The notes: a model not told the origin generated them from the letters alone. 64,000 nt of DNA from an uncultured Bacilli bacterium (GCA_934100165.1 CAKOPN010000006.1:52837-116836); one strand, 5' to 3'. Positions 36,894-52,347 are shown, counted from the first letter of the stretch. Made by a program: numbers and translations.

Positions 36894-36969
36894 TGGCAGG
36901 GGATGCAAGACTCGAACTCACGACACCCAGATTTGGAGTCTGGTGTTCTACCAACTGAACTAATCCCCT
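36894..36969 (-). tRNA. trnW: tRNA-Trp (anticodon CCA), encoded 3' CCA
   Basis: The reverse complement AGGGGATTAGTTCAGTTGGTAGAACACCAGACTCCAAATCTGGGTGTCGTGAGTTCGAGTCTTGCATCCCCTGCCA folds as a cloverleaf. It has a 7-bp acceptor stem, anticodon stem CCAGA/TCTGG, loop CTCCAAA and a TTCGAGT T-loop. Confidence 0.95.
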
Positions 36970-37034: not shown

Positions 37035-37907
37035 TTATTTTACTTTTTCTACAGAAACAAAAGCATATGTGCCATTTGAATCTTTTTCAAAAGTATATTT
37101 GTAAATACTAGCTTTATCTTGATACTTATTGAAGAATTCATCGTTTGTCATTACTTGACCATTTACTTGAGCAACAAGCGTCTTTCCTTGATAATCAGAA
37201 TAATAACTCGAATCGCAGAAATTAAATGCGACATATTCATATACATCTATAGTATCTTTGCTTGAACTTATTGTCTTTTTAGCATAACCTATTTTAGAAT
37301 ATGTTTTATCACAAACCATTCCACCACCATCTTTATTTTGTTGTTCATATCTATTTTTAGCATCTGACCATTCAAACCCAGTTCCTAATACTGTTTTTAA
37401 AATGAATGAACTTCTAGAATAGCTTATAGTGTTGCCATATAAACCAGTAAATGCATTTTGTACTTCTTCTTCTGATAGATATGCCACTTTGTTATTTTGT
37501 TCCAATTTAACTTTATCTTTTATAGATTCAGTTGATAATGATAATCTAAGTTTCTGTGGTTCATCTTTTAATACTGTTTTATCTTTTTTATAAAAATAGT
37601 TTCTATAAAAATACTCACCATCAGTATTGTAAACATTAATAGCTTTTTTTACTAAATTTTGTACTTCTTCACTGTTTACATCTAAATCTATTACAGTTTC
37701 TTTATTTTCTTCTTTGTTGTCATCCTTGTTATCATTGTTTGTAGGATCTTTTACTTCTTCATTGTTTCCGTTATTTTGATTTTTATCATCATTTTTACTG
37801 AATAGATTACTTTGTCCTACTACTATACCTCCAAGAAAAAATATTATTACTAATAGCACTACTATCACAATATATAATGCATTTCCCTTTTTTGTTTTCT
37901 CCTCCAT
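37035..37907 (-). CDS. N-terminally anchored extracytoplasmic protein, unknown function
   Basis: ATG at 37907 lies 7 nt after AAGGAG. One TM (ALYIVIVVLLVIIFFLGGIVVG), an N/D/K-rich linker, then a globular domain. Confidence 0.7.
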   Translation of the reverse strand: MEEKTKKGNALYIVIVVLLVIIFFLGGIVVGQSNLFSKNDDKNQNNGNNEEVKDPTNNDNKDDNKEENKETVIDLDVNSEEVQNLVKKAINVYNTDGEYFYRNYFYKKDKTVLKDEPQKLRLSLSTESIKDKVKLEQNNKVAYLSEEEVQNAFTGLYGNTISYSRSSFILKTVLGTGFEWSDAKNRYEQQNKDGGGMVCDKTYSKIGYAKKTISSSKDTIDVYEYVAFNFCDSSYYSDYQGKTLVAQVNGQVMTNDEFFNKYQDKASIYKYTFEKDSNGTYAFVSVEKVK

Positions 37908-38069
37908 TTGCCTACTCCTTTTTATTGTAAATAATAGCACATATTACATCATTTTTCAATCTATCAATCATTTATTATTTTTTGAGCATAATTACCAAAT
38001 TTTACCATTTTTTTGTTTTACTACATAAAAAAATCAATTACACCTTCTTCGATATAATTGATTACACTT

Positions 38070-39217
38070 TTATCTTGGCAACAATAAAAGTTGATTTATT
38101 CTTAGAACATTGCTAGTTAAATTATTTAAACTTTTTATTGCATCTACAGTAGTATTGTTTTCTCTTGCTATAGAATATAATGTGTCATTTGGTTGTACAT
38201 AATAATTTATGTAAGAGTTTGTATTTGGAATATATAAGATTTCCCCTACCGTTAAAGTTGTTGATGGGAGTGAGTTATATTCCATTATTTCATTAACTGT
38301 AGTTCCATATTTTCTAGCAATTGAATAAAGCGTATCATTCCTTGCCACTACATGTTTTATATCATCTTGATTGACATTTCCTTGATTATTATTACCTATG
38401 TTACAACTAGCTGGAAGTAACAAGATATCCCCTCTTCTAATAATGGTAGTTTCTAGATTATTTAGTCTTATAATCTCATTAACATCTATGCTACAAGTAT
38501 TTGCAATTTTCCATAAAGAATCACCATCTTGAACCGTATAACTGATCGTTTCTGTGCCATTGCCTGGTGTTTCATTACTTATTGGTATCAAAAGTTGTTG
38601 GCCAATTACCAAATTTTGGGTATTTAGCTTGTTAAAATCTATGATATCTTCTGGTGTTATTCCATATTCTGTGGCAATTTTATATAATGTATCTCCTCTT
38701 TTTACTGTGTAGACTGTATAATTACTTGGATTTGGAATAATTATTTCTTCAGAATCTGGAAGGATTAGTTTTTGACCTATTTGAAGTGTGTTTGATGTTA
38801 AGTTATTTGCACTTTTTATGGCCTGAACAGTAGTGTTATACTTTTGTGCTATACTGTACAGACTATCTCCTCTTTGCACTACATAAATATTTTGACTATC
38901 ACCGTTAACAGGAACGTATGGTACACCAATGTAATTAGCAACTGCTTTTACAACTGCTTCACCATAATCTAGCAAATTGTTTTGAAGTTTATATAAGTCA
39001 TTTTTATTGTCTATAAAGCCATACTCAATTAGTAGAGACTCTGTATCGCCAGTTAATCTTTGAATAAAGTAATAATCCTTTGATGGATTTTCTGGTAATC
39101 TTCTTTGATAATATTTTCTACCCTTTTGACCAGCTTTTTCTAGTTCTTCTAGAATTGACTTTGCAAGAGTATCATCATTTCTCAATGCGTAAACAACTTC
39201 AGCGCCTTCACCACCTG
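38070..39217 (-). pseudogene. N-acetylmuramoyl-L-alanine amidase (Amidase_3) gene, 3' fragment: C-terminal half of the catalytic domain plus 5 LysM repeats
   Basis: The frame is open from 39245. It reads ...PGGEGAEVVYALRNDDTLAKSILEEL...YYFIQR...LLIEYGFIDN, followed by five LysM units (Y.V..GD.LY.IA....). It has no proper start; the track uses a TTG at 39185. It is the continuation of the fragment at 51973..52243. Confidence 0.85.
39209..39217. repeat. 9-bp direct repeat flanking the element (left copy; att core region)
   Basis: CACCACCTG is also present at 51973-51981. Confidence 0.85.
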
Positions 39218-39234
39218 GTGATGGGCATTGTGTA
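39218..39234. repeat. 17-bp terminal inverted repeat, left end
   Basis: GTGATGGGCATTGTGTA. The reverse complement of 51956-51972 is GTGATGGTCATTGTGTA, a 16/17 match. Confidence 0.85.
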
Positions 39235-39245
39235 GTTAATTTATT

Positions 39246-40511
39246 TTAAAAATGTTTATTAAATTTATAATCATTATAATTTAACATATTTGAAAAAATT
39301 ATATCAATTACAATATCATAAAGTATTTTTGTTCTTTTATAAATCCATTCAATATCAACATCATTTGCAAAATAATCTTTTGGATTTTTTTTACCTTTTA
39401 TTCTAGGATATATTATTTCTAATGTTTCATTGTCAATAAAATATCCATTGTGTGCATAATGATTTCTTAAACTTATTATCTCCCTAGTGTAATCTTCAAC
39501 ATTAACTATTATCTCTTTTTTATAGTTATTAATAAGGCTATATGAAATAAAATCATTATAATGTCCATTACATTTGTAATAACATTCAATAAATCTATAA
39601 AACATTAAAAAATTATCTTCAATATTTCTAGAAGTATTTAAAATTATATATGGGATATTTCTTATTTCACTTTTACTATTTCTATATGGTATTAAATTAT
39701 AACATTTTGGCAAAAAATTTTTTAACTCATCAGACACGCTATTAAGTACAAGCTTACTATTATAGTCTAATCTTTTCATAGGAATATTCAATTCGTAATA
39801 AAAATCATTAATAAATACTTGAACTTTATCTATTATCAATTTATCAGGCCTTAATAATTGTAAGTATATCATAATTTCTCTTATATAATCATATACATCA
39901 TCACAACTTATTGCATCTTCCAAAATCATTTCCAAATAACCCGTTAATTTGATAGATATATCTTTATTTTTATAGTTATGAATATGATTCCAATCATCTG
40001 ATAAAATTAATTTTTTTATATTATCTTTGTTTATGTCAATTGTTTGTTTTATTGTTTCAAATTGAAGTTTTATTACCAATTCATTTTCTATTGTTTCCTC
40101 AAATAAGCTTGGATGACCTATAAGTTCATTAATAAAACTACTATATAATTTTATTTTTTTAACATCTGGACTTTTAGGCAATTCACATAATTTGTTATAA
40201 TCCTTATGACTATAATAACACCTTGAAATAAATTTGGTTTTTGAACCACCATCTGGAGTCCCCCACACGTTAGTGTGCCCTGAATAACATGCATCTTTTA
40301 ACAAGTAATTTATTTTATTTTGATAATCAATAATTAGTATATCTCGCTCATTAAATTTTGTATTTATTCCAAAAGTTCTAACTCCATTATTATTTGGTTC
40401 AATTTCATCATCTATATCATAATTTACAATTACTTCTATTGCTTTGTCATTAATTAAATATTCACATTCAAAAGATTTATCATAATCCTTATTAAAAAAA
40501 CATACTGCCAT
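39246..40511 (-). CDS. HEPN-domain protein, ApeA-like candidate
   Basis: 421 aa. The C-terminal region has NFLMFYRFIECYY ... EIISLRNHYAHNGYF (Rx4H HEPN motif). Size and layout resemble ApeA-type single-protein defence nucleases. Not verified by HMM. Confidence 0.5.
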   Translation of the reverse strand: MAVCFFNKDYDKSFECEYLINDKAIEVIVNYDIDDEIEPNNNGVRTFGINTKFNERDILIIDYQNKINYLLKDACYSGHTNVWGTPDGGSKTKFISRCYYSHKDYNKLCELPKSPDVKKIKLYSSFINELIGHPSLFEETIENELVIKLQFETIKQTIDINKDNIKKLILSDDWNHIHNYKNKDISIKLTGYLEMILEDAISCDDVYDYIREIMIYLQLLRPDKLIIDKVQVFINDFYYELNIPMKRLDYNSKLVLNSVSDELKNFLPKCYNLIPYRNSKSEIRNIPYIILNTSRNIEDNFLMFYRFIECYYKCNGHYNDFISYSLINNYKKEIIVNVEDYTREIISLRNHYAHNGYFIDNETLEIIYPRIKGKKNPKDYFANDVDIEWIYKRTKILYDIVIDIIFSNMLNYNDYKFNKHF

Positions 40512-40531
40512 TATAATACCTCCAAAACTAC

Positions 40532-40729
40532 TTAAAATTCATCATCTATATCATAAATAATACCACTTGTAGGATGTTTTAAAATTTTTAATAATTCATT
40601 TCCTATTATTCTTATTTCAAAATAAAATACTATTGCATCTTCAGAATCAAATGTATTATCTCTATCAGGATCTGTATCATGTTTTGCATAATTTAATAAT
40701 CTTCTTAAATTGTTAAGTCTATCGTACAA
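40532..40729 (-). CDS. Small HEPN-motif ORF (possibly the 3' part of a frameshifted gene)
   Basis: LNNLRRLLNYAKHDT (Rx6H) followed by DSEDAIVFYFEIRIIGNELLKIL, a typical post-motif HEPN helix. There is no ATG; the track start is a TTG. The frame opens inside the end of the upstream ORF. Confidence 0.45.
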   Translation of the reverse strand: MYDRLNNLRRLLNYAKHDTDPDRDNTFDSEDAIVFYFEIRIIGNELLKILKHPTSGIIYDIDDEF

Positions 40730-40740
40730 ATCCCCATTAA

Positions 40741-41154
40741 TTATTCCTTCGTTATATAATGTTCAATATTTCTTCCAAACTCTCTTTTATTATAAATAAA
40801 TTTAATAAGTTTATTTTTAGATAAAGTTAATTTAACAAGTGTTTCTACATGTAATGCAGCATCTATTATTATATGTCTTGCTCTATTGCAACAATACATA
40901 TCACTTCTTGCATATTGAAGACTTCTGAATACATTTCTATAGTCACCTAATCTATTAAATGGATTTACTGTAGGATTTAATGGTGCAGCGTAACCACCAA
41001 ATCCACCTATTTTTTGATCAAATTCCCATATTTCTCTTTGCTTTTCCTTATTCATGTATTCCTTATCAATTATTTTTGCAAATCTCTTAAAAAGTGTTAT
41101 TTCTTCTTTAGTATAGTAGTTATTTACAATAATTCTAGTTTCTATTCTCATCAA
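40741..41154 (-). CDS. Hypothetical protein (possibly the 5' part of the same HEPN gene)
   Basis: 137-aa ORF, 6 nt downstream of the Fic gene. It ends ...RNIEHYITKE*, and the -1 frame continues as ...LYNEGIINGDLYDRLNNLRR.... Confidence 0.5.
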   Translation of the reverse strand: MMRIETRIIVNNYYTKEEITLFKRFAKIIDKEYMNKEKQREIWEFDQKIGGFGGYAAPLNPTVNPFNRLGDYRNVFRSLQYARSDMYCCNRARHIIIDAALHVETLVKLTLSKNKLIKFIYNKREFGRNIEHYITKE

Positions 41155-41160
41155 TGATTC

Positions 41161-42087
41161 CTATATTAATTCTAAATATTTCTTTAGCATTTCGACTTCT
41201 AACTTAGTAACCAATTTAATAAAATCAGTATAATTACCAGTTGTATGTGCCTTATCTAGTGCTTCATAATATTTTAATCTTGATTCTTTTTTAATAATTA
41301 CAGGATTATATCCATTGTTCATTAAAACCAAATTCATAAGTAATCTGGATGTTCTTCCATTACCATCTACAAACGGATGTATTTTTACTAATTCTCCATG
41401 CAATAACGCTGCTTGAATTATCGGATGATATTCACTCCAAGTATTATAAGTTAATATTAATTTTTCCATCAATTCAGGAATTTTTAAATAGTCTGGGGGA
41501 ATATGTGTTGCACCTTTAATAGTTACATTTTCTTTTCTATATCTCCCAGCATTTTCATTATCTATATCTTTTAAAATTAACTGATGGATATTTTTAATAT
41601 TCCATTCGCTAATTGGTTCATTATCTTTAACTAAATCATCTAAAAATAAAATTGCTTTTTCATGGTTAATTGCTTCTAAATGTTCTTTAATAGATTTTCC
41701 ACCAACAGTTATTCCTTCTAAAACAACTTGTGTTTCTCTTAATGTTAAAGTATTACCTTCTATTCCATTGCTATTATAAGTCCACTCTAAATTAATAGAT
41801 TCTCTTAATGATTTTAAAGTTTCTTTTGATATTGGTCTTTTACTATCTAAATCTTTTTTTAAGCCATCTACTTCATCAAAATAATTATCTTCTAAATCAA
41901 TAATAAATTTATTATCATCCGGTTTAATTATTCTTTTATCAACAGGTTTATCAGCATCAATAGGAATATTCCAACTATTTCCTACTTTAATGGCACCCTC
42001 AATTCTACCATCTTGCAGTAATTGTCTTATTCTCCTCTCGCTAATGTTCCATTTTTCAACAGCTTCTTTCGTAGTCATAAATTCCAT
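41161..42087 (-). CDS. Fic-family protein (AMPylase-type) with N-terminal HTH
   Basis: Canonical Fic motif HPFVDGNGRTSRLLMN. The class-II inhibitory-helix-like motif SNGIEGN fits (S/T)xxxE(G/N). N-terminal MerR/excisionase-like HTH (TTKEAVEKWNISERRIRQLLQDGRIEGAIKVGNSWNI). ATG at 42087 lies 6 nt after GAGGTG and downstream of the promoter. Confidence 0.9.
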   Translation of the reverse strand: MEFMTTKEAVEKWNISERRIRQLLQDGRIEGAIKVGNSWNIPIDADKPVDKRIIKPDDNKFIIDLEDNYFDEVDGLKKDLDSKRPISKETLKSLRESINLEWTYNSNGIEGNTLTLRETQVVLEGITVGGKSIKEHLEAINHEKAILFLDDLVKDNEPISEWNIKNIHQLILKDIDNENAGRYRKENVTIKGATHIPPDYLKIPELMEKLILTYNTWSEYHPIIQAALLHGELVKIHPFVDGNGRTSRLLMNLVLMNNGYNPVIIKKESRLKYYEALDKAHTTGNYTDFIKLVTKLEVEMLKKYLELI

Positions 42088-42106
42088 ACTATTCACCTCG
42101 TTTGTA

Positions 42107-42135
42107 ATTATACCGTATTCGGTATAATTAGTCAA
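42107..42135 (-). promoter_or_regulatory. Consensus promoter of the Fic-HEPN operon with an embedded 7-bp inverted repeat (candidate operator)
   Basis: On the minus strand: TTGACT (42130-42135), a 17-nt spacer, then TATAAT (42107-42112). The spacer/-10 region contains TATACCG-N4-CGGTATA (42109-42126). Confidence 0.75.
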
Positions 42136-42273
42136 TGTTTTTATTCCGAGGTTGGTACAACATTTTTATAAATTTCCAACATGTTGCACAAAGTTATTAA
42201 AATGAGACTCAATCAATTGCCTATATCTTTACAAAGTGTTAGTATATATAACTAAATTATGGAGGTATTTACT

Positions 42274-43242
42274 ATGAAATTTATTTTAAACAGTAACATT
42301 TTTGATACAGTGATTTCAATATTTTTGATTATTAATACAATAACAACAATAATTGTATATTTTTGTGAATCTAAGAACGAAATAAAAAATATTAAAATGG
42401 ATAATATGTTGAATAAATCAGAATTGTTTAAGTTAATCGTCAATATTATATTTATTATTATCTTTACATTCGTTTTGATTATTGTTGCAAACAAATGTAA
42501 AATAACATCTTATATTATTTTACTATATTATTTGAGCTTTATTTTGATATCATTAAAACTTTCAAAAAAGAATATCATAAATTTAACTACTGAAAATAAA
42601 ATGTCATATATTCAAACTACAATTTTATTTACTATTTTCTTTTCAAGTAAAGCGACCGCGATTTGTATAAATAGTTTTTCTACTTTTTCTCGCACTGCAA
42701 AAGAATATTTATTAATATTTTTCCTTATTTTTAAATTAGTATTTTTTATATATTGTACAATAATTAATTTTTCCATATTTATTTCTAATTTAAACATTAT
42801 ATTAAAAAAACAATTAAAATTTATCAAGACAATATTAATAAAAATTGAAAATAAATATTTTGAACTTAAATTATACAACTTTTATTTTTCAAGAAACAAC
42901 AATAGCAAACCTTTTTTTATTATAGATAGTATCATTTATATATTATTGTATCCATTTATAATGATATTATATTTTACATTTGCACTAGTTATCCTATCTA
43001 TAAAGTTTTTAATTAGGAAAATACTAGCATTATATACAAAAATAATTAATTATTTTAATAATAGTTCGAAAGTAATAAGAAAAACAATTAAAATATCTAC
43101 TATAATTTCATTACTTATTATTTATATAATTATAACTTACAATAACAACATTTTTTCTACAAACACAAAAGATATATTTACCCTTTTATCAACAGTTATA
43201 TTAATACCTTTAATTTATGATAGTATAAAATCTAATAAATAA
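42274..43242 (+). CDS. Polytopic membrane protein (about 8 TM), extremely AT-rich, unknown function
   Basis: ATG at 42274 lies 8 nt after GGAGG. The 322-aa protein is I/L/F/N/K-rich and consists of successive hydrophobic segments. It is transcribed divergently from the Fic operon. Confidence 0.6.
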   Translation: MKFILNSNIFDTVISIFLIINTITTIIVYFCESKNEIKNIKMDNMLNKSELFKLIVNIIFIIIFTFVLIIVANKCKITSYIILLYYLSFILISLKLSKKNIINLTTENKMSYIQTTILFTIFFSSKATAICINSFSTFSRTAKEYLLIFFLIFKLVFFIYCTIINFSIFISNLNIILKKQLKFIKTILIKIENKYFELKLYNFYFSRNNNSKPFFIIDSIIYILLYPFIMILYFTFALVILSIKFLIRKILALYTKIINYFNNSSKVIRKTIKISTIISLLIIYIIITYNNNIFSTNTKDIFTLLSTVILIPLIYDSIKSNK

Positions 43243-43283
43243 TTTAACTTCTGACCATATTATTCAAAAGTTATAATATTGTA

Positions 43284-43450
43284 TTTTTTCAACTTCTCCT
43301 CAAATTGGGGCAAAGTTGTTTAGCTTTACACTTTGGATCCTTTTGGACCGACGTTATTTAGTTTTCAACTTTGCGACAACTGGCCGAGAAGTTAGAATTT
43401 TGATGTTACGAGTTTTTATGTACTATTCTGTGCAAATGCACAGAATTTTT
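43284..43450 (+). ncRNA. Candidate structured small RNA / structured 3' UTR
   Basis: TATAAT at 43272-43277. Nested long-range stems pair AACTTCTC (43291-98) with GAGAAGTT (43386-93), and CAAAGTTG (43311-18) with CAACTTTG (43366-73). A terminator hairpin TTCTGTGCA-AA-TGCACAGAA (43426-45) plus T5 follows. This is a locally GC-richer, ORF-free stretch of about 200 bp. Confidence 0.35.
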
Positions 43451-45023
43451 AAATCATGAATCTATAGAAAATTTCAATATTTTTATCCTTATCAATTTCA
43501 ATTCTATCAATTAATGTTTGTAAAAGTTCTCTAGTAGGATTTTTTATATCTATTAATTCTCTTATTCTTTCTTCATATTCTTCTAATTCTTTAGTTTTAA
43601 CACTTTCTTTTTTAGTACCTTTATATTTTTCTAAATCCAATTGAGCTTTATTTAATAGACTTTCCGTTTCTTGAGATAATCTTTTATAAGTAACATCTGA
43701 TATATTACCTTTAAATTTATCTTCATATAACATATCAATTTTCGAGACATATTCTTTTATCTTCTCCTCTAAATATTTTATCTTTTCTTTATTATCTTCT
43801 TTCCTATTATTTTTAGTTGCTATTTCTTTAGATAATGATTTAGAATCAATTCGCTTAATATAATTTTTACAAGTCGTTCTTACTACTTCAAGTAGAGCTT
43901 CCTCTAATTTATCATATGGCATAAAATGCGGTTCACATAGTCTTCTTCTTGGATCTCTTGCATATTTATTACAATTAATAGTCCAATAATTATGATTTTT
44001 TCGGTACGTAATAGTTAATGTATTACCACATTCTTTACAAAATAGTAAATTTTCAAATAATCTTTTTTCTCTATTACTAACACTTACATTAGTCCTTTTG
44101 ACATTACCTTGTATTCTTTCAAAAGTTAGTTTATCAACTAATGGTTCATGTGTTTCAGAAACTATGTCCCAATTACTTTTTGGAAGTGCTTTTTTCTTTT
44201 TAGATTTATAATTTATTTTAGTCTGTGTACTTTGAACCATATCACCTGTATACATTCTATTTTTTAATATCTTTTTAACTGATGATATAGTCCATTGTTC
44301 ATTATATCTCATTTTAGAATTAAGATTTTTTCGTTTTAAACTACTAGGTGTTTTAATTTTATTATCATTTAAATATGAAGCTATATCAGATAATCCTACA
44401 CCACTGGCTGCCATTTCAAATATTTTTTTAACTACCGATGCATATTCAGGATCAGGTATTAAATGACCTTTTTCATTTGGATCTTTCATATATCCATAGC
44501 TTGGATTACTTCCAATAAACTTTCCTTTCTTTCTTTTATCATTTAAAACACTCCTAATTTTAATAGAATTTTGCCTACTATAATAATCGTTACAAGCAAT
44601 TATAAATGTTGATGAATCATTACTTGCTTGATTAATTGCACTATCATAGTTTTCTTGTAATGATATAAATCTTATATTATTTTCTGGGAAAAATCTTTCA
44701 ATATAATATCCTGTCATAACATGATCTCTACCTAATCTTGATAAATCTTTTACTATAACTAAATTTACCTTTTTACTTTTAATATCTTCAATCATTTTAG
44801 TAAATCCAGGTCTTTCAAAATTAGTACCAGAATATCCATCATCAACATATTCTCCAACAAATATAAAACCTTTTTCTTTTACAAAGTTCATTAATAAATT
44901 TCTTTGATTAGTAATACTTTCACTTTCTGATTCATAAGATTTTCCTTCATCTGCTTCAGATAATCTTATATATATGACCGCTCTATAAATATTATTTGGC
45001 ACTTGTATCAATCCGTTATACAT
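43449..45023 (-). CDS. Large serine recombinase (resolvase N-terminal domain + recombinase domain + zinc ribbon + coiled coil)
   Basis: AVIYIRLSEADEG...SITNQR (catalytic Ser context), VKDLSRLGRD, a central recombinase domain, CKECGNTL...C...C, and a C-terminal coiled coil. Confidence 0.92.
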   Translation of the reverse strand: MYNGLIQVPNNIYRAVIYIRLSEADEGKSYESESESITNQRNLLMNFVKEKGFIFVGEYVDDGYSGTNFERPGFTKMIEDIKSKKVNLVIVKDLSRLGRDHVMTGYYIERFFPENNIRFISLQENYDSAINQASNDSSTFIIACNDYYSRQNSIKIRSVLNDKRKKGKFIGSNPSYGYMKDPNEKGHLIPDPEYASVVKKIFEMAASGVGLSDIASYLNDNKIKTPSSLKRKNLNSKMRYNEQWTISSVKKILKNRMYTGDMVQSTQTKINYKSKKKKALPKSNWDIVSETHEPLVDKLTFERIQGNVKRTNVSVSNREKRLFENLLFCKECGNTLTITYRKNHNYWTINCNKYARDPRRRLCEPHFMPYDKLEEALLEVVRTTCKNYIKRIDSKSLSKEIATKNNRKEDNKEKIKYLEEKIKEYVSKIDMLYEDKFKGNISDVTYKRLSQETESLLNKAQLDLEKYKGTKKESVKTKELEEYEERIRELIDIKNPTRELLQTLIDRIEIDKDKNIEIFYRFMI

Positions 45024-45100
45024 TTATTACTCCTTTCTTTTTTGTATAACAATCAAAGCCATTTAAAGTATAATGCTTTATTTTCATAAGTACCAATGTG

Positions 45101-45199
45101 CTAATTTTGAATTAGTACACTTTTTATATATTTATTTAACAAATCCACCAAATTAAGAGCATTATCATCCTTTTTAAAAGTTTCCGTAATTTTAAACAT
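45101..45199 (-). CDS. Small ORF (32 aa) immediately upstream of the recombinase
   Basis: ATG at 45199 is preceded by GAGGTGG. It encodes MFKITETFKKDDNALNLVDLLNKYIKSVLIQN*. It is below the track cutoff and coding status is unproven. Confidence 0.3.
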   Translation of the reverse strand: MFKITETFKKDDNALNLVDLLNKYIKSVLIQN

Positions 45200-45244
45200 A
45201 AGCCACCTCATAAAATTTTATGAGTGTCTTTTTCATTTTATTTC

Positions 45245-45748
45245 TTATTCCTCCTCGTACATATCACTTAATAATTTTTTTAACTCTTTTTGTTTTTCAA
45301 TAGTTGCCTCATTTTTAGGTATTAACTTACCATGCCAGTATTCATTACCATCTTCATCTTTATAATAAATACTATCTTCTTTTTTATTTAATTTATTATA
45401 TTGTTTAAAGTTTTGTTTATAGCCTGTATTAAAATTATCTTTAACACTTTTTATTTTTAAATTTAAGAACTCTGATAATTTAATTATACGCTTAGAATTA
45501 TTTGTACCTTTATTATCATATTCAGTCTTAATATAACCAAAGGTGGCCAAATTACTTATACTTTTTGATATAGTTACTTGTGTTACATTATAAATATCAC
45601 AAAAATATCTATTAGTAGCCCAACAATAACCATTTTTCTTACAAAGACTTATTATATGAATTAATAATAGTCTTTCTAAAAATGTTAATCTATTATCTCT
45701 TAATACGGATTTTAAAATAAATACATTTATGAATTCTTCTTTATCCAT
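45245..45748 (-). CDS. Winged-helix/HTH DNA-binding protein (phage/plasmid replication- or regulator-like)
   Basis: LTFLERLLLIHIISLCKKNGYCWATNRYFCDIYNVTQVTISKSISNLATFGYIK. The ATG at 45748 is chosen because the longer track ORF runs through the upstream terminator hairpin. The start is uncertain. Confidence 0.6.
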   Translation of the reverse strand: MDKEEFINVFILKSVLRDNRLTFLERLLLIHIISLCKKNGYCWATNRYFCDIYNVTQVTISKSISNLATFGYIKTEYDNKGTNNSKRIIKLSEFLNLKIKSVKDNFNTGYKQNFKQYNKLNKKEDSIYYKDEDGNEYWHGKLIPKNEATIEKQKELKKLLSDMYEEE

Positions 45749-45860
45749 AATAATCAATATATAAGATATATCTTGAGATAATAAAAGTGCACTTTTAAAG
45801 ATTATTTTCCTAGGTGTTTTCATCTTATAACAAATTAAAATAAAAAGAAATTGTACAAAA

Positions 45861-45889
45861 CATGCAAAAGGAGTACATTTCTGTACTCC
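45861..45889 (-). terminator. Rho-independent terminator ending the ATPase-TOPRIM / Mrr-STAND operon
   Basis: GGAGTACA-GAAA-TGTACTCC 8-bp hairpin (45870-45889), followed by TTTTGCATGTTTTG on the minus strand. It lies 8 nt after the stop at 45898. Confidence 0.8.
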
Positions 45890-45897
45890 CAATTTAA

Positions 45898-48207
45898 TCA
45901 TTGTATATCATAATCTTGATTAAATATATCGTCAACATCAATTGTATTTGAATTTATCCTTTGAGAATAATCATAATCAATAGAATCCCCATACATTTCT
46001 TTCTTGTAATCATTTAAATCATCGTCTAATAACATTTCAATACATATATTATCAATTATATAATCATAATCTAACTCTACATTATTAAATTTATACCCTA
46101 AATTTCTAATATAATCAATGCATTCATTAGCTTTTTGTATTAATTCTTCTTCCACTTGCTGCTTAACTTCAAAAACGTAATTTATGTTTCCTTCTAATTC
46201 TTCATTATTATTTATAAATTTTATATCAGGTGATGTACTTCTAATTGTTTCATTAACAAAATCTTCTCCTAAGGAAATTAATTTATATTCAAGAGAAGAT
46301 GATAAAACACTAATTAAGTTTTTTTCTACTAATAAATTAGGCAATTCAATATCCGAATAATATTCTAATAATTCTTCAATATATTCATAATCTGAATCAA
46401 CTATTTTTTTTGAAAATTTTTCCACATCATTTATAATCGTCTCTAAAGAATAAAAAGCTCGGATACTTTTATTTAAAGCAAATTTAACTAAATAATTTCT
46501 TTTTAAATCATAATCAAAAAATGAAGAGACATAGTTTTTAATTTTTTTATCACAATACTTATGTTTAATAATAAATTCTATTTTCTTCTTTATTTCTAAA
46601 TTATCTTCACTCATAAATGAATTATAGTGATTATATGCTGATATTTTTTCAAAATTATCAATATTATTTTCTAAAAAATAAGGACATAATCCCGAAATTT
46701 TATCCAATTGTTCTACATATAAAGCAGTATCAAATATTTTTTTCAATTGAGCATTATTATCAAGCAAATAATTTTGTATATAATCATTGATGGATGGGTT
46801 TAATACACTTATATATTTTTTCTTGCCTAAAATAGCGATTCCTATCAGTGATTTACTCAATCTATTTATTGAATCATTAAAACTATAACGAGAAACGTCA
46901 TATCCATTTCTTATTAGAAAATTTACTGTTGATTTTTTTAAAACATCTATTGGAATATAATTATTTCCCAAAGTATATAATTGATACATTAATATCGCAT
47001 CACAAGGTTCAATCCTATCAAACTCACTTTTCCAAACATCCTTTGGGTTATTTAATGCATTTATAATGAAATCATAAAAATTTTCTGATTCTAACTTTTT
47101 CTCACGTATAACACACATTTCAATAATGCGTGTATTAAATGATTTATGCTCAATAATACTATTATAATTTTTATTTTTAATTATTGACTCATATGATTTT
47201 TTAGTAACACCGTTATGATACATTAAATTATATAAAATTCTTGCCCGATCTAATTTAGTTATTTCATTAACATCTATCAAACATTCTTTAATACCAATTT
47301 CGTCCATTAGCTTTTCAAATTCTTGTTTTTCATTCTTAGCTTTATTTAAAATTGTAATTCTACTATTTAGTATAATCTTTTTATTTTTATAAATTCTTGT
47401 TAATTTTAATAACGATTTTAATTCATTAATCAATTTATCACTAATTGATAAGGACGTTTGTCCTAAAAAATCATCTAAAAAAATTATTTCAGGATTATCA
47501 TTTTGTTGCACAGATTCTATCAACTTTGAAAAATCATTATTAGATACTGTTGTCAATCTATATTCTTTGTTACTTATCAAAAGATACCTTATCAACATTT
47601 TAGATGTCAATGTTTTTCCAATGCCAGGATCACCAATAAATAAAATAACTCCACTAGAATTTATAATATCGACTGCATCATAATATGCTTTAGTTTCTAC
47701 AAAATATTTTGTTTCATTTTCAAAATCATCTATCATGACTTTACTAATAGCATCAGAATACCTATTTAAATACAAATCTAATACTACAGCTGATGAAAGC
47801 CATAATTTATGATTCTTTTTTAAAACATCAATATTTGCATCATCTATTAAAAAATCATCGATATCATTTTTTCCTATAACATAAGAATAATTTTTCATGT
47901 AGTCTCTAAAAATATCATATATATTCTTAGTAACCGTTTCACTAATTTCAGCAGTAGTTAGTAAATAATATGAATCAAAAGACTGTTTTTTTATTTTTTC
48001 TAATTCTTTTTTGCAAGCATCAACTAATTTTGAAGAATCTTTATATCTTTTACATTGACAAATAACTTTACCATCAAAACTTATTAAATCAATGCCATCA
48101 TCTTTACCAGGACCAAATCTTTTAAATTTTAAATTTAATCTTTTTTCCATAAAATCCAGGCAAAACTTTTCAAACTCTATTGGATCTAAATTTAAAATAT
48201 TAAACAT
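45898..48207 (-). CDS. Mrr-like PD-(D/E)xK nuclease fused to a STAND-type P-loop NTPase with a helical C-terminal region of about 500 aa
   Basis: N-terminus: FEKFCLDFM...GPGKDDGIDLISFDGKVICQCKRY (Mrr_cat pattern). Walker A ILFIGDPGIGKTLTS (aa 188-202), Walker B EIIFLDDFLG (aa 240-249). The C-terminal remainder is long and alpha-helical looking. Confidence 0.75.
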   Translation of the reverse strand: MFNILNLDPIEFEKFCLDFMEKRLNLKFKRFGPGKDDGIDLISFDGKVICQCKRYKDSSKLVDACKKELEKIKKQSFDSYYLLTTAEISETVTKNIYDIFRDYMKNYSYVIGKNDIDDFLIDDANIDVLKKNHKLWLSSAVVLDLYLNRYSDAISKVMIDDFENETKYFVETKAYYDAVDIINSSGVILFIGDPGIGKTLTSKMLIRYLLISNKEYRLTTVSNNDFSKLIESVQQNDNPEIIFLDDFLGQTSLSISDKLINELKSLLKLTRIYKNKKIILNSRITILNKAKNEKQEFEKLMDEIGIKECLIDVNEITKLDRARILYNLMYHNGVTKKSYESIIKNKNYNSIIEHKSFNTRIIEMCVIREKKLESENFYDFIINALNNPKDVWKSEFDRIEPCDAILMYQLYTLGNNYIPIDVLKKSTVNFLIRNGYDVSRYSFNDSINRLSKSLIGIAILGKKKYISVLNPSINDYIQNYLLDNNAQLKKIFDTALYVEQLDKISGLCPYFLENNIDNFEKISAYNHYNSFMSEDNLEIKKKIEFIIKHKYCDKKIKNYVSSFFDYDLKRNYLVKFALNKSIRAFYSLETIINDVEKFSKKIVDSDYEYIEELLEYYSDIELPNLLVEKNLISVLSSSLEYKLISLGEDFVNETIRSTSPDIKFINNNEELEGNINYVFEVKQQVEEELIQKANECIDYIRNLGYKFNNVELDYDYIIDNICIEMLLDDDLNDYKKEMYGDSIDYDYSQRINSNTIDVDDIFNQDYDIQ

Positions 48208-48208
48208 T

Positions 48209-49390
48209 TTATTTTACCTCCTCAACTAAATATTTATATTTCTCATAATCTTTAAAATTGTCTAAATATTCAATAAAATCAGGAGCATTTTCTTTTTTCC
48301 CAGTATAACCAATTTCACCCTCTAATATTGTATTTGATTCCAAATATATATTACATTTTTTTATTTCAATATTAATTGCTTTATTATTTTCATCCTTTTC
48401 ATTATCCTTATCAAATAATGGAATAACTTCTATATCAAGATTTTGAAATATTTTTATAAAAGGTATAAAGTGTGGCTTTCCATAACATTGAAAAATACTA
48501 TATTGTGTATATTGTTTATTATAATTAACTAACAATTTTTTAATAAACAATTCATCATTTATACCTTCTACCATATAAATTTTTTTTGAAAACAACGAAT
48601 TCAAGAATTCCTTTTTATGAAGTTCTATAATATTTCTTTTTAACGAATCTACAGAGAAATAAGATTTTGATTTATTATTCAAATTTTCAACATGAATATC
48701 ACTAGGGAGTAATATAGCACTTTTAAAATCAATTTTTTTTGGTTCTCCAAAATTTGGATCATTAAATATAAATAAATTTTCAAAATCAATATCTAATAAA
48801 TTTAATAAATCTGGAGAATGTGTAGCTACACAAATATCTTTCGTTTTACTTAAATCATTTATAAGACCTGCAGTAACATGCAACAACGATGGATGAGTAT
48901 GATTTTCTGGTTCATCTAAATAAATAAACTGCTTATGACTCTTTTGTATTAATTTTAATAAAAATTGTAATTTCTGACCACTTCCCATGTTATTTTTTAA
49001 ATCATCTGAATTTATTTTTACTATTTTTTTATACTCTTTTGTCGGAGTTGTAGAAATAACGTTTTTTTCTCTCTTTTGATTATTAAGGCTTAAAACCTCT
49101 TCCATTATTTCATTATAAATTTGTTGGTTCTCCTCAATACTTTTATCCAAAGCACTTTCATAATTTTTTCTAGCATTAGAAATCTCTTCATTCTCTAACA
49201 ACTCACTAATCAAATATTCCATTACAAAAGAGCTATTAACCGTATCTTTCATTTCATCAACAAATACTATTTCGGAATTTAATAATAGAATATCTTTTCT
49301 TTCTTTATCCTGTTTTTTTAATTCTTCTATTTCTTTATTTATCGCAAATGTTTTACCATAACCATTTGGACCAATATAAATTTTTAACAT
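48209..49390 (-). CDS. ABC/AAA_21-type ATPase fused to a TOPRIM domain (compact OLD-family-like / DUF4435-like protein)
   Basis: Walker A GPNGYGKT (aa 7-14), signature-like MGSGQKLQF, Walker B IYLDEPENHTHP, VATHSP, then TOPRIM-like IYMVEGINDE (aa 271-280) and LFDKDNE (aa 325-331). Its stop lies 1 nt before the downstream ATG. Confidence 0.7.
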   Translation of the reverse strand: MLKIYIGPNGYGKTFAINKEIEELKKQDKERKDILLLNSEIVFVDEMKDTVNSSFVMEYLISELLENEEISNARKNYESALDKSIEENQQIYNEIMEEVLSLNNQKREKNVISTTPTKEYKKIVKINSDDLKNNMGSGQKLQFLLKLIQKSHKQFIYLDEPENHTHPSLLHVTAGLINDLSKTKDICVATHSPDLLNLLDIDFENLFIFNDPNFGEPKKIDFKSAILLPSDIHVENLNNKSKSYFSVDSLKRNIIELHKKEFLNSLFSKKIYMVEGINDELFIKKLLVNYNKQYTQYSIFQCYGKPHFIPFIKIFQNLDIEVIPLFDKDNEKDENNKAINIEIKKCNIYLESNTILEGEIGYTGKKENAPDFIEYLDNFKDYEKYKYLVEEVK

Positions 49391-49472
49391 ACTACATCAC
49401 TCCTACTACTAAAAAAACGCAATACAAAACTTAAAGATAATTTAAGCCTGTACTAGCGCCTTTTTATTCTTT

Positions 49473-49715
49473 TTATAATTTTATATTCCAAATACCTTGT
49501 TTTCCAGATATTTCATTTTTACAATTAACTTTTTCTAAATTTTCTAATTTCCAAGCATATCCAGTTCTATCAAACTTATGACCATAGACCAGCTCATTTT
49601 CGCTTATTATTTTCTTATTTACATCTGGATCAAGCTTGATACAATCCGTAATGCTTACTTTAGCCAATATTCGAGGTTTTGAATAATTTAAATTAAGATG
49701 TTCAAATTTCTTCAT
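49473..49715 (-). pseudogene. ASCH-like domain remnant (C-terminal portion)
   Basis: The frame is open upstream of the annotated M and reads [29 protein letters not shown]...GKQGIWNIKL. The expected ASCH N-terminal strand is missing. It abuts the dcm fragment in a different frame. Confidence 0.4.
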
Positions 49716-49747
49716 AGCATCTAAGTCAACACCCTTACCAGCATGAA

Positions 49748-49891
49748 TTAAAATTTCTCCTCTTGCCTCATATGTTTGTATAGCAACTTATCTATTTCAG
49801 AAGAAAAAAAACATGTACCACCTAATTTTTGATACGGTCTTCTAATACCACCTATTCCCGCAAATAAATCTATAAATTTAAAATCTGACAT
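49748..49891 (-). pseudogene. 5' fragment of a DNA (cytosine-5) methyltransferase gene
   Basis: ATG at 49891 follows GAGGTGA. It encodes [35 protein letters not shown]..., which is motif I FxGxGG plus motif II (SEID). It then goes out of frame and stops after 47 codons. Motif IV (PCQ) and later motifs are absent. Confidence 0.7.
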
Positions 49892-50084
49892 TTTTATCAC
49901 CTCACTATTGTACAATTTCTAGTACGCTCTCTATAAATAATTATAACACATATTTCGACATTTTTATTAAGGGTTTGGGAATTTCCCACAAAAGAATTTC
50001 TTACGGGAGTACAAATTCAGTGCTGGCTAGACAATAAACATACTCCTACATCAATTTTTTAATGTGTTTTATTTTTGAATTTAA

Positions 50085-51191
50085 TTACAAAGTATAGTTA
50101 CTTATTAATTGGAGTATAATCTGATTTCTTTGCATAACTAAACTTTCCGGTTCGTAAAAGCACATAAACATTTCATTTTTATCTACCGATTTTTTATATA
50201 ATTTCAAAAATAAAATTAAGTTTTTTCTTTGAAAATCAGTCATGTTTTCTAACAAACAAATTATATTTTGATAAGAATTTTGATCCAAAAAATCAAAAAA
50301 TTTATTCATAAAACCAATCATAACATCAGATAATTGTAATCGAATATTTTTCTTAGAATCTTCGAAATTATAATTAGTTATATCGCTATTTTTTAATTTA
50401 TCTTGAATTTCCGAAATCTCATCAAAGCAATGAAACGATTTATAAAATTTAACACACATATCTAAGTTCAACCCTGAATAACCATCAATTATTACTTTTT
50501 CAGAATTATTTTCTAAAAAAAATAATTGCTCCTTTTTTGAAAATTTTTTAAATAATTGTCTACAAGTTTCAAGACAAAATAACATATTAGTATCTGTTTC
50601 ATTAATCCAATTATACATTTTTTTGCAAAAAAACTCAATGCAATCTCCAGTAACATTGGGATAATTTGATTCTTCTAAAATATGTATAAACCTATTTATA
50701 TCTGTTTTTACATAAAAATATAATTCATCTTTCATTATTGGTGCTAAAAAAGAATATGTTTCTTTATATTTATCTAACAATAAAGAATCAACTATTTCTA
50801 TTATTACATCATAAAGATTATCAAAAGTAGAACAATGTAAATATATATCATTATCATACATAAATTCTAATATTTTATTTAAGTTTTTTCCTCTCAGGCA
50901 ATTTATAAATGTATCTGTTTTTCCTGTATTTATTTGTTTAAATTTTAATTCACCTTGTACATTTAATTTTTTTAATAAGTCGTCCCAATCAACCATATCA
51001 TCTTTATTTTTATCTAAAGTTAATCCACCTAATCTATATTTTTGTAAAAAATTATCAATATTTAAAATTTTGTTATCTTTAAACTGAAATTTAATAAAAT
51101 TATTTGTTTCATCATAATAAAAATTATTAACCACATTAGTATCATAACCTTGCTCAGTATAGTATTCTTCTAGCAATGCACTAAGACTCAT
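50085..51191 (-). CDS. Hypothetical protein, DUF3800-like candidate
   Basis: ATG at 51191 lies 9 nt after GAGGAG. N-terminal FYYDETNNF and C-terminal FEDSKKNIRLQLSDVMIGF resemble the DUF3800 D-E...DS..LQ.aD signature. Not verified by HMM. Confidence 0.4.
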   Translation of the reverse strand: MSLSALLEEYYTEQGYDTNVVNNFYYDETNNFIKFQFKDNKILNIDNFLQKYRLGGLTLDKNKDDMVDWDDLLKKLNVQGELKFKQINTGKTDTFINCLRGKNLNKILEFMYDNDIYLHCSTFDNLYDVIIEIVDSLLLDKYKETYSFLAPIMKDELYFYVKTDINRFIHILEESNYPNVTGDCIEFFCKKMYNWINETDTNMLFCLETCRQLFKKFSKKEQLFFLENNSEKVIIDGYSGLNLDMCVKFYKSFHCFDEISEIQDKLKNSDITNYNFEDSKKNIRLQLSDVMIGFMNKFFDFLDQNSYQNIICLLENMTDFQRKNLILFLKLYKKSVDKNEMFMCFYEPESLVMQRNQIILQLISNYTL

Positions 51192-51257
51192 AACAATCAA
51201 CTCCTCACATATATTATAACATTAAAAACACTACCATTTCTGATAGCGTTAATTTTT

Positions 51258-51557
51258 TTAATAATATCTTTTTAATCTTAATGGATTACTATTCTTCACT
51301 ACTAAATTATATTTTATTTTTAATATTTCTTTTATCTTAGGTATAAGTCTACTAATATCACACCTACAATTAAATATATCTACAGCAGAGTTAATATGAT
51401 TTATTAAATTACATTCTGATAAACAATGTCTACTATATACATTTGCTAAATAGAATGCAACTACATCTGGTATAACATAATTATTTAAATAATTATTAAC
51501 ATTGTTATAGAAAGGTAAATATATTTCTTCAAATTCTTTATTAGTTATATCACACAT
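51258..51557 (-). CDS. Hypothetical small protein
   Basis: 99-aa ORF overlapping the end of the tnpV-like gene by 8 nt. No recognisable motif. Confidence 0.5.
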   Translation of the reverse strand: MCDITNKEFEEIYLPFYNNVNNYLNNYVIPDVVAFYLANVYSRHCLSECNLINHINSAVDIFNCRCDISRLIPKIKEILKIKYNLVVKNSNPLRLKRYY

Positions 51558-51912
51558 AGATATACTCCTTTAAAATTATTTCTTCGACTTTATTTTTTAT
51601 ATTATTCATTTTACCTATCCATAACATTTGACTACTACTTTTTAATTCTTCAGTTATATTTTCTTTTTCAACAAGTTCTTTAATTAAACTTTGTTCTTTA
51701 TCAATAAGTGTAATATCAATATCATTCAAATACTCATTCAACTTATCTTTCATAAGTAGCTCAGTATATAATACTCTTTTATTCTTCTTTAAATACTCCA
51801 ATTTAAGTAATCCGTACTTTCCTAAATTAAATCTTTCTTTATTTTCTAATTTCAAATCTGGTAATAAATAATCACCAATTCTAGTGTAACTAATGCTCAT
51901 AATTTTCCTCAT
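51550..51912 (-). CDS. tnpV: TnpV-like protein (Tn4451-family accessory protein)
   Basis: SISYTRIGDYLLPDLKL...LGKYGLLKLEYLKKNKRVLYTELLMKDKLNEYLNDID...SSSQMLWIGKMNNIKNKVEEIILKEYIY matches my recollection of the TnpV family pattern. It is the first gene inside the right end of the element. The start may instead be ATG at 51900. Confidence 0.65.
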   Translation of the reverse strand: MRKIMSISYTRIGDYLLPDLKLENKERFNLGKYGLLKLEYLKKNKRVLYTELLMKDKLNEYLNDIDITLIDKEQSLIKELVEKENITEELKSSSQMLWIGKMNNIKNKVEEIILKEYIYV

Positions 51913-51955
51913 TTCTTTCTATTTTATTTGGTTTTAATTGTTATACATATTTCGT

Positions 51956-51972
51956 TACACAATGACCATCAC
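51956..51972. repeat. 17-bp terminal inverted repeat, right end
   Basis: TACACAATGACCATCAC is the reverse complement (16/17) of 39218-39234. Confidence 0.85.
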
Positions 51973-51981
51973 CACCACCTG
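51973..51981. repeat. 9-bp direct repeat flanking the element (right copy)
   Basis: CACCACCTG is identical to 39209-39217. Confidence 0.85.
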
Positions 51982-52243
51982 CATTTATGTGATTAGATAA
52001 AACAATTACATCAGAACTATTCCCAAAAGCATTTAAAATTCTATTTACTCTTTCATTTCTATCTAAAGTTTCATCTGTATCTCTTGTAATATAAACTGGT
52101 ACTCCTAGTTGTTTTAATCTATCATAAATGTAGTTAGCAACTTCTAAATTAAAATTTTTTTCGTAAATATTACCATTAACAGCACCTGAATCAACGCCTC
52201 CATGGCCAGCATCAACCACTACTTTTTTGATATTGTCATTCAT
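51973..52243 (-). pseudogene. N-acetylmuramoyl-L-alanine amidase (Amidase_3) gene, 5' fragment
   Basis: MNDNIKKVVVDAGHGGVDSGAV...VIVLSNHINAGG is the N-terminal half of Amidase_3. The track ORF continues 10 codons into the element (…GDGHCVTKYV*) to 51941. Confidence 0.85.
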
Positions 52244-52347
52244 AGTTTCACCTCACAATAAAATATGCAAATAATATGATTGTGTGAAAGTGCAACTATG
52301 AATTTTTAATATCTTTTGTTGCTGAAAGCTTTTTGATTCTCTGATAA

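Follow-up and report, generated by a model that had tools for sequence, protein, structure and literature searches.

A probable site-specific integrative element with candidate defence genes splits an autolysin gene at one glycine codon in uncultured gut Bacilli

INTRODUCTION

Serine recombinases can place elements inside coding sequences and excise them precisely, and several described systems of this kind provide the background for the locus analyzed here. The locus lies in a 64,000-nucleotide (nt) stretch of DNA from an uncultured Bacilli bacterium (GCA_934100165.1, CAKOPN010000006.1:52837-116836), which we call the window. In it, an Amidase_3-LysM autolysin gene is interrupted, at a single glycine codon, by DNA that encodes a large serine recombinase. 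We consider it highly probable that this DNA (39216-51976) is a site-specific integrative mobile element with defence genes, and that it belongs to a large family in uncultured human-gut Bacilli. The family that targets this codon is very common and apparently undescribed; our literature search found no paper that connects an intervening element and a serine recombinase with an amidase as target, and no description of this target or family.

Closest in outline are skin (in sigK), SPbeta (in spsM), gin (in gerE) and yin (in yabG), each a serine-recombinase element in a coding sequence, bounded by short direct and inverted repeats and excised precisely. Their hosts are sporulation genes, and excision occurs in the terminal mother cell, driven by sporulation sigma factors through a recombination directionality factor. 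The gin element illustrates that such gene-intervening elements need not be prophages (PMC5595907, PMC4191935, PMC5025042, PMC10747680). In Anabaena, the large serine recombinase XisF excises the heterocyst fdxN element to restore its gene.

A second group comprises the integrative mobilisable elements Tn4451, Tn4453 and Tn6104 of Clostridium, whose large resolvase is TnpX and which are small, of non-phage nature and equipped with accessory cargo (PMC3158075). They carry a TnpV gene, cross over at 2 bp and use many target sites. An Xis-like role of TnpV is only a postulate, and TnpX by itself is enough for Tn4451 to transpose (PMC3158075 and references cited there).

A third group is defined by fidelity to one chromosomal site. 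The staphylococcal cassette chromosome (SCC) goes into the 3′ end of rlmH and leaves that gene undestroyed, and the A118-type prophage of Listeria, in comK, is another case of a single coding site. SCC and SCCmec elements, moved by Ccr recombinases, combine a single conserved site with tandem accretion and the carriage of anti-phage defences (PMC11470126). Durrant et al. (2022) described site-specific elements of large serine recombinases (LSRs) in a gene for a Mg-chelatase/ATP-dependent protease and in one for a prolyl isomerase (PMC10083194).

RESULTS

An exact join in silico restores the split amidase gene

The two halves of the amidase gene flank the element, and they match adjoining portions of the Amidase_3 profile, the second half followed by LysM repeats, just as the preliminary description of this DNA had assigned them (Table 1). 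As integrated, the open reading frame (ORF) of the N-part (52243..51941) runs into the element and stops at 51941 after 100 amino acids (aa), and the C-part frame, open from 39245 to 38070, has no start codon of its own. The joined protein reconstitutes the Amidase_3 domain in a single stretch (positions 1-173/174, 104.7 bits). A protein search returned uninterrupted orthologues at 99% identity, all of 470 aa and all reading HINAGGGEGAEV with three Gly, as more distant orthologues also do; their genes carry a scar-free attB. The contiguous domain and the 99% orthologues bear out the central proposal of that description, that a serine-recombinase element splits a single amidase gene whose reading frame precise excision would restore. 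The catalytic domain is cut in its middle, and therefore neither fragment would be expected to be active. The gene is split; its enzymatic function would presumably be lost as a result. The window contains no second Amidase_3 gene.

The repeats that had been reported at the element ends are both present in the window sequence: a 9-bp direct repeat, CACCACCTG (39209-17 and 51973-81), and 17-bp inverted repeats that match at 16/17 positions. The 19-nt terminal arm TGGTGATGGKCATTGTGTA has two sites only in the window, one at each end of the element and on opposite strands (Table 1), where 0.02 matches are expected by chance and 0/100 shuffled sequences gave two. The two arms are complementary at 18/19 positions. 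The element has a G+C content of 23.2%, compared with 28-30% in the flanks.

Two registers for the join are visible in the raw sequence because of an ACC/GGT triplet repeat. Joining at CACCACCTG, as first proposed, yields a 469-aa protein reading HINAGGEGAEV, with one Gly fewer than every intact orthologue, and we replaced this register with the one set by TCACCACC and GG. In the corrected register, the 8-bp core common to both junctions is GGTGGTGA on the gene strand (TCACCACC on the + strand, at 39208-15 and 51969-76), and deleting one copy of it restores attB exactly, as judged from the natural empty sites of two loci (L001 and L002), whose DNA reads CACATAAATGCAGGTGGTGGTGAAGGCGCTGAAG. Joined in this way, the gene agrees with the natural orthologues of 470 aa and with their attB DNA, AATGCAGGTGGTGGTGAAGGCGC. 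Regeneration of one intact ORF thus stands, with the register moved by 3 bp (469 aa against the natural 470 aa), and comparison with the intact attB changes the element's length from 12,755 bp to 12,761 bp.

A serine-recombinase mechanism requires a 2-bp non-palindromic centre. Here the identity windows of attL and attR overlap only in GGTG, and the arms are in register around GG, which points to GG on the gene strand (CC on the + strand) as the crossover dinucleotide; we take it as such. In the amidase gene, the cut separates Gly89 from the first two bases of the next Gly codon (90). The rebuilt attP, TACACAATGCCCATCACCA-GG-TGGTGATGGTCATTGTGTA, is a 40-bp imperfect palindrome with 19-bp arms (18/19) and a 2-bp non-palindromic centre, in place of the approximately 43 bp around a 5-bp centre, GGTGG, of the earlier proposal. 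Its junction reads ...ACACAATGCCCATCACCA-GG-TGGTGATGGTCATTGTGT... in the window's type of element and ...CACTTTGACCATCGCGA-GG-TGGCGATAGTCATTGTG... in a second type (that of L023); attB around the core reads ...AATGCAGGT-GG-TGGTGAAGGCGC....

The same codon is occupied across species

We next consider how often this codon is occupied, using a survey of one genome per species that included 15 relatives with an assessable site. The gene is split at the same codon in 10 of them, the amidase match starting at residue 90 or stopping at residue 89 (L006, L007, L008, L010, L011, L013, L015, L018, L019 and L020), and it is intact in the remaining five (L005, L009, L012, L014 and L016). Recombinases 52-71% identical to that of the window lie 0.1-5 kb upstream of the C-fragment in these relatives. 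A closed 1.31-Mb chromosome (L008) holds a complete element of 9,869 bp with the same order of TnpV, 99-aa ORF, HTH_36 and recombinase genes. For two related recombinases (91% and 69% identity), every context is the same amidase codon. Overall, all of these elements lie at the same GG of the amidase codon; they have at least three kinds of ends, and their recombinases share 52-95% identity with that of the window. The window's own species provides a further case: a genome from a Hadza gut metagenome (L003), with flanks at 95-97% nucleotide identity, has a different element at the same position, with a 552-aa recombinase that is 53% identical. Within this species, the clusters of intact proteins contain 84 member sequences and the C-fragment clusters 32. 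The junction in L020 is possibly the other end of the L003 element; an attP rebuilt from both is not obviously palindromic.

A second survey used the arm-plus-core pattern ACACWWTGMYCATCRCSAGGTG, which would match integrated and circular forms alike, and it recovered 44 metagenome contigs, nearly all from the human gut. The sequence runs in frame into the amidase (GG[E/D/T]GAE... or GAEGAE...) in 40/44, representing more than 25 distinct alleles, and into the left arm of a different element, a tandem junction, in the other 4/44. None of the 44 places the arm and core in another gene. Hybrid junctions of two element types, a sign of tandem accretion, are documented in five loci (L028, L051, L052, L061 and L077), and the junction in the four contigs is the one seen in L028. 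In one of them (L028:15331-21575), the GG core links the right arm of a first element with the left arm of another, TGGCGAGTTTACTTACCATTACATAATTTG..., and the second island there carries HamA with a helicase, Fic and a C5 methylase.

The identity windows of attL and attR differ among these elements: GGTGGTGA in the window; GAGGTGG, GAGGTGG(CGA) or GAGGTGGCGA in L008 and L023-27; GGTGG in the L031 type; and GGTG in L029/L030, where the host site is GCTGGG-GG-TGCAGAAGG. At every occupied site, a T follows the GG (codon GGT). Among intact alleles, L005 and L009 have GGA or GGC at that codon and L012 lacks the motif (codons listed as GGA, GGC or AAT for the three). These alleles may be unusable by the recombinase, which we mention only as a lead.

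Some loci show other arrangements. In L082 (8240-8660), the N-fragment has lost its 5′ end, with a TAA just upstream of the AHGG motif and no start codon, and excision therefore could not restore that copy. L014 pairs an intact amidase with a separate 87-aa C-half fragment ~4.8 kb downstream (L014:12561), and L009 pairs one with a distant (41%) homologue of the 99-aa ORF ~4 kb downstream (L009:14432-14719); both may be traces of other elements or past events.

Near-identical elements are found in dissimilar hosts

An exact 524-aa recombinase (P0187), 91% identical to that of the window, occurs in several chromosomal neighbourhoods, each time with an Amidase_3 N-fragment on one side and a LysM C-fragment on the other. 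The element to which it belongs, of 13,942 bp, has 100.0% nucleotide identity in L023, L025, L028 and L029, whereas less than 20% of the flanks can be aligned, at ~70% identity. A variant carrying type I restriction-modification and a reverse transcriptase, with 99-aa ORF P0346, shows 99.9-100% identity between strains with flanks at 98.6-99.9%, and the same degree of identity extends to a host in which the amidase N-part matches at only 71%; in the assembly collection, the P0346 ORF is found in 2,944 indexed blocks. Near-identical elements in hosts with dissimilar flanks therefore indicate recent transfer between species and faithful re-insertion at this site.

Several results weigh against an active integrative element with defence genes. 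Pfam scans found no relaxase, mobilisation or conjugation gene among the 14 main ORFs of the element or in the Pfam lists of related elements, and the element's DNA has no match in phage and plasmid records, which bears on the route of transfer. The exact attP circle junction had 0 matches in assembled metagenome and viral contigs and was present in none of the 44 arm-bearing contigs, an absence that is uninformative on excision frequency because assemblies rarely retain circle junctions; the 44 integrated copies serve as a control, in that the element is present in metagenome contigs and its circular form was not assembled. No directionality factor was identified: TnpV had no match in the PDB, and the AlphaFold model of the 99-aa ORF, from an 18-sequence alignment, has a predicted local distance difference test score of 42 and is unusable. 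Finally, the defence roles of the cargo are those of candidate systems, assigned from profile matches.

A conserved backbone encloses swappable cargo

The features of the element are collected in Table 1. Its ORFs run in the direction of the amidase in 13 of 14 cases. The recombinase, which the preliminary description had recognised as such, has three domains above cutoff, and its C-terminal DUF4368 match scores 19.6 bits against a cutoff of 25. It aligns over its full length with TndX/DUF4368 proteins at ~32% identity, and its best match among solved structures is the catalytic domain of TnpX. Its best NCBIfam match is XisF, at 90 bits against a cutoff of 375, which rules out an XisF orthologue.

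Table 1. Features of the element and of the split amidase gene in the window
Feature	Coordinates	Strand	Remarks
Amidase 5′ part, codons 1-89	51977..52243	-	Amidase_3 N-half; profile positions 1-82, 69 bits
Putative crossover dinucleotide, amidase N-part side	51975..51976	.	CC (GG on gene strand); dyad centre of rebuilt attP; GGTG overlap of identity windows
Terminal arm (P′ half-site)	51956..51974	-	TGGTGATGGTCATTGTGTA on gene strand; consensus TGGYGAWRGTCAWWGTGTAAC common to related elements
Conserved 18-nt motif, copy A	51930..51947	-	TGTATAACAATTAAAACC; 35 nt upstream of TnpV start codon; same position in L008, L023, L029, L031, L081, L085
TnpV-family protein, 120 aa	51550..51912	-	PF14198, 124 bits (cutoff 27); ~40% to annotated TnpV
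99-aa backbone ORF (u99)	51258..51557	-	Conserved; no Pfam family
PDC-S51-like candidate defence protein, 371 aa	50085..51200	-	255 bits, full length
C5 cytosine DNA methylase remnant, 55 aa	49748..49915	-	Profile positions 1-36 of 324 only
OLD-like ATPase/TOPRIM protein, 393 aa	48209..49390	-	OLD-like_TOPRIM, AAA_21, AAA_15; weak GajA / PDC-M01A
PDC-S73-like candidate defence protein, 769 aa	45898..48207	-	Mrr_cat nuclease + nSTAND3 NTPase; 339 bits, full length
HTH_36 protein	45245..45901	-	Backbone gene directly upstream of recombinase in most relatives
Conserved 18-nt motif, copy B, inverted	45043..45060	+	Starts exactly 37 nt upstream of recombinase start codon
Large serine recombinase, 524 aa	43449..45023	-	Resolvase + Recombinase + Zn_ribbon_recom above cutoff; weak DUF4368-like C-terminus
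Hydrophobic ORF, 327 aa	42259..43242	+	Sole opposite-strand element gene; 38%-identity counterpart in relatives
Fic/DOC protein, SoFic / PDC-S04-like	41161..42135	-	N-terminal excisionase-type helix-turn-helix (HTH_17; TIGR01764, weak)
Region with contents found together only in L039	39246..41154	-	
Terminal arm (P half-site)	39216..39234	+	TGGTGATGGGCATTGTGTA on + strand
Putative crossover dinucleotide, amidase C-part side	39214..39215	.	CC (GG on gene strand)
Amidase 3′ part, codons 90-470 + stop	38070..39215	-	Amidase_3 C-half (84-173) + five LysM repeats

The left end of the element begins with the TnpV gene, whose family assignment in the preliminary description holds well above cutoff (Table 1). 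It is co-directional with the amidase and lies 28 nt past the stop of the N-fragment. Across elements, the genes at this end always share the direction of the amidase and lie 25-75 nt beyond the N-fragment. A matrix of presence and absence over all loci shows the recombinase everywhere, HTH_36 usually just upstream of it, and TnpV with the 99-aa ORF wherever the left end was captured. The exception is the L031 type, in which the first gene is a homologue of the 99-aa ORF (59% identity) without TnpV, and TnpV is thereby ruled out as a universal left-end gene. The 99-aa ORF falls into 353 clusters, and one exact sequence is found on at least 1000 contigs.

Two copies of an 18-nt motif, TGTATAACAATYAAARCC, lie in opposite orientation, one upstream of TnpV and one upstream of the recombinase, and the 37-nt offset from the recombinase is identical in the window, L008, L023, L081, L007 and L019. 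From its placement, the pair may be a shared operator of the two genes. Candidates for the directionality factor are TnpV, the 99-aa ORF, the HTH_36 protein and the 18-nt motif pair. Rfam had no match inside the element.

Everything between the 99-aa ORF and HTH_36 forms a variable slot with defence-like contents. Relatives carry GmrSD with an OLD+UvrD pair resembling Gabija, HinfI (type II) restriction-modification with HamA and a helicase (Hachiman-like), or type I restriction-modification with an RVT_1 reverse transcriptase; the L003 element (L003:1-10012) carries a complete type II CRISPR-Cas system, Cas9-Cas1-Cas2 with an array of ~17 repeats at 6005-7160. In the window, the methylase remnant suggests turnover or decay of cargo. 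The Fic module is 90-95% identical across elements (L019, L040, L047, L023 and others) whose recombinases are 58-94% identical, and its conservation despite recombinases at 58-59% identity therefore indicates mosaic exchange between elements.

Flanking genes and other strain-specific insertions

The flanks of the window hold housekeeping genes only: a ribosomal cluster, SecY, two FemAB genes, a MurJ-like flippase, a two-component system and PP2C. An ordinary S-adenosylmethionine (SAM) riboswitch (35028-35111, - strand, 65.5 bits) lies upstream of metK. Between it and the amidase are two genes without a convincing Pfam match, at 37035-37940 (301 aa) and 35237-36688 (483 aa, Asn/Gln-rich), on either side of tRNA-Trp (36894-36969). 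Both are absent from the conspecific L001 and L003, which share only a 165-bp segment with tRNA-Trp; they form another pair of strain-specific insertions, this one beside a tRNA. On the other side of the amidase, L001 (7241-9895; window ~52287-52344) has a gene for an 884-aa AAA_11/AAA_12 helicase with DUF2726 between a phosphodiesterase gene and the amidase, which the window lacks. Conspecific strains with an intact amidase carry this gene, and a similar 912-aa gene replaces the side of the amidase N-fragment in L032.

A gene for a Hydrolase_2 protein, a cell-wall hydrolase of the SleB/CwlJ type, adjoins the amidase in several hosts, downstream of the C-fragment (L023-L027 and L031-L034). It hints that the amidase could belong to a set for germination- or sporulation-related wall remodelling in those hosts.

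Comparison with described systems

The likeness to the Tn4451 family that had been proposed for this element holds at the level of domains, in the TnpV gene and in the affinity of the recombinase to TnpX among solved structures; the 2-bp crossover, the small size, the non-phage character and the accessory cargo are shared as well. It does not extend to the recombinase as a whole, with its distance from TndX-type proteins and its sub-threshold DUF4368 match, nor to mobilisation genes, of which the scanned ORFs include none, nor to targeting. The core is GG here and GA in the Tn4451 type, and a single codon, as seen in the metagenome contigs, contrasts with many target sites. The recombinase of the window also lies in mid-element, and the cargo consists of defence genes, not catP. 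We do not file the element in the Tn4451 family because it has no mobilisation gene and no multiple targets.

With SCC, the element shares the fidelity to one chromosomal site, the tandem accretion and the carriage of defences, but its recombinase is not a Ccr (86.6 bits against the CcrB equivalog, cutoff 900), and it cuts through the catalytic domain of its target. With the class of site-specific LSRs, it shares the convergence of divergent recombinases (down to 52% identity) on one site in one gene family, and it falls under the operational definition of that class (PMC10083194). The main text of PMC10083194 does not mention an amidase target, and the window recombinase is nearer to the TndX/DUF4368 group, which is classed there as multi-targeting.

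The likeness to skin, SPbeta, gin and yin lies in the position within a coding sequence, the repeats and the precise join. In contrast to them, the window element has no demonstrated link to sporulation and no identified directionality factor, and its family shows clear recent horizontal mobility with swappable cargo.

DISCUSSION

A model for the element family

The evidence above can be assembled into a mechanism. A recombinase that is a distant relative of TnpX and TndX would recombine the ~40-bp, imperfectly palindromic attP of the excised element with an attB of the amidase gene that covers the codons for H-I-N-A-G-G-G-E-G-A-E. The attP has a GG core, flanked on each side by an arm with the consensus GTTACAC-WW-TGACCATC-RCSA. 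A staggered cut would be made at the GG of Gly codon 90, as suggested by the known mechanism of serine recombinases, by the centre of the attP dyad and by the 4 bp in which the identity windows overlap. Integration leaves a 100-aa N-fragment and a start-less C-fragment of the autolysin, and the reverse reaction would return a scar-free 470-aa gene, as the in silico join predicts when set against natural empty sites. The backbone consists of TnpV and the 99-aa ORF on the left and of HTH_36, the recombinase and often a Fic module on the right, with element-specific defence cargo between them, and the 18-nt motif upstream of TnpV and the recombinase probably co-regulates both. Elements spread horizontally between species and can pile up in tandem at the site. 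The data fit a locus in dynamic balance between insertion, excision and replacement at a conserved hotspot.

Alternative explanations

The split gene is widespread and does not, in general, decay, and its persistence is one reason to consider a regulated gene switch. According to this explanation, the element is, or is also, a domesticated intervening sequence that is excised on sporulation-type differentiation, stress or phage attack, rebuilding a signal-peptide-less lysin when needed. A possible trigger would be transcription from the amidase promoter into TnpV or the 99-aa ORF, acting as directionality factor. The join is scar-free and in frame, the gene is kept even though it is split in 10/15 assessable species, and about 50 of 65 split C-halves retain ORFs of 295-429 aa. 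For the first 100 codons of the C-half, split pairs have a ratio of non-synonymous to synonymous substitution rates (dN/dS) of 0.26 and intact pairs one of 0.23, with no detectable relaxation, although dS is saturated (~1.3) and the test is weak.

The arrangement and nature of the gene supply points on both sides. Left-end genes follow the N-fragment closely and in the same direction, and the window has no terminator-like site between the N-fragment and TnpV; in the junction regions, terminators were not found and promoter-like hits are no more frequent than in shuffled sequence, which speaks against a switch. The Amidase_3 domain begins at residue 8, and the protein therefore has no signal peptide, a point in favour of a switch. 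Its nearest solved relatives are the amidase domain of C. difficile Cwp6 and a germination-specific amidase, which we take to be CwlD, but it scores only 74.8 bits against the CwlD equivalog (cutoff 221.55). Sporulators as well as non-sporulators are predicted in the host clade (PMC10868615), which favours a switch; the absence of sporulation genes from the 64-kb window counts against one.

The behaviour of the family also speaks against a switch. Identical elements in unrelated hosts, mosaic cargo and tandem pile-ups are signs of selfish mobility, intact alleles are abundant, and the L082 copy is not restorable. We therefore regard a regulated switch as unlikely. The analogy to the developmental switches of sigK and spsM, which the preliminary description had raised, is not supported so far because the family is horizontally mobile and exchanges its cargo, with identical copies in different species, tandem pile-ups and common intact alleles.

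A more specific version treats the split autolysin as a self-repairing, on-demand gene. Read-through from its promoter would supply TnpV and/or the 99-aa ORF as directionality factor, the motif would co-regulate the recombinase, and excision would occur only in promoter-on cells. Such cells might, for example, be terminal ones of a sporulation-like kind, or cells that lyse on phage infection. We would give this version little credence.

At the other extreme, the element could be a dead insertion, a remnant that can no longer move and has put a dispensable autolysin gene out of action for good. The decayed cargo with its 55-aa methylase remnant, the undetected attP junction in assembled metagenome and viral contigs, and the lack of a relative more than 95% identical to the window recombinase in the protein collection are consistent with it. 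But the recombinase ORF is full length with all three domains, both arms are intact (18/19), both gene halves are open, and the closest relatives were demonstrably mobile in the recent past, which together make a dead insertion very improbable.

A prophage or a phage satellite using a serine integrase is the least plausible explanation, to be dismissed almost entirely: serine integrases are common in temperate phages, and recombinases 29-42% identical occur in human-faecal contigs labelled 'Bacteriophage sp.', but no capsid, terminase, portal or tail families were found among the scanned ORFs (Pfam), the arm-plus-core pattern has no match in IMG/VR, and the elements, at 9.9-13.9 kb, are too small for a tailed phage. 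A phage or plasmid vehicle was likewise rejected, with no DNA match in either collection and protein matches of only 29-42% identity.

Significance

A serine-recombinase island in a conserved coding site is a known kind of arrangement. What is notable here is its prevalence in the gut, its specificity to the codon, the swappable defence cargo and the persistence of the split gene. The hotspot is precise and highly conserved: it is a single Gly codon, situated where an Amidase_3-LysM autolysin has its catalytic domain, and it comes with a family of recombinases that use that codon. Its hosts, uncultured RF39-like gut Bacilli, are abundant in humans, and the elements are a major, previously unannotated vehicle of defence systems in them, up to a complete CRISPR-Cas9 locus.

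The many natural pairs of attP and attB with a GG core, together with a tightly site-specific enzyme akin to the usually promiscuous TnpX and TndX, provide material for studying and engineering the specificity of serine integrases, and they may help in building genetic tools for these hosts.

For the hosts themselves, the elements explain strain-level variation at the amidase locus, and they move between species essentially unchanged. That a gene can be split in most of the species examined and yet not decay may reflect tolerated damage, constant turnover of elements or a regulated switch. If the on-demand explanation were true, it would extend the principle of sigK and spsM to a cell-wall hydrolase in gut Bacilli with reduced genomes, and it would tie a mobile defence island to programmed lysis.

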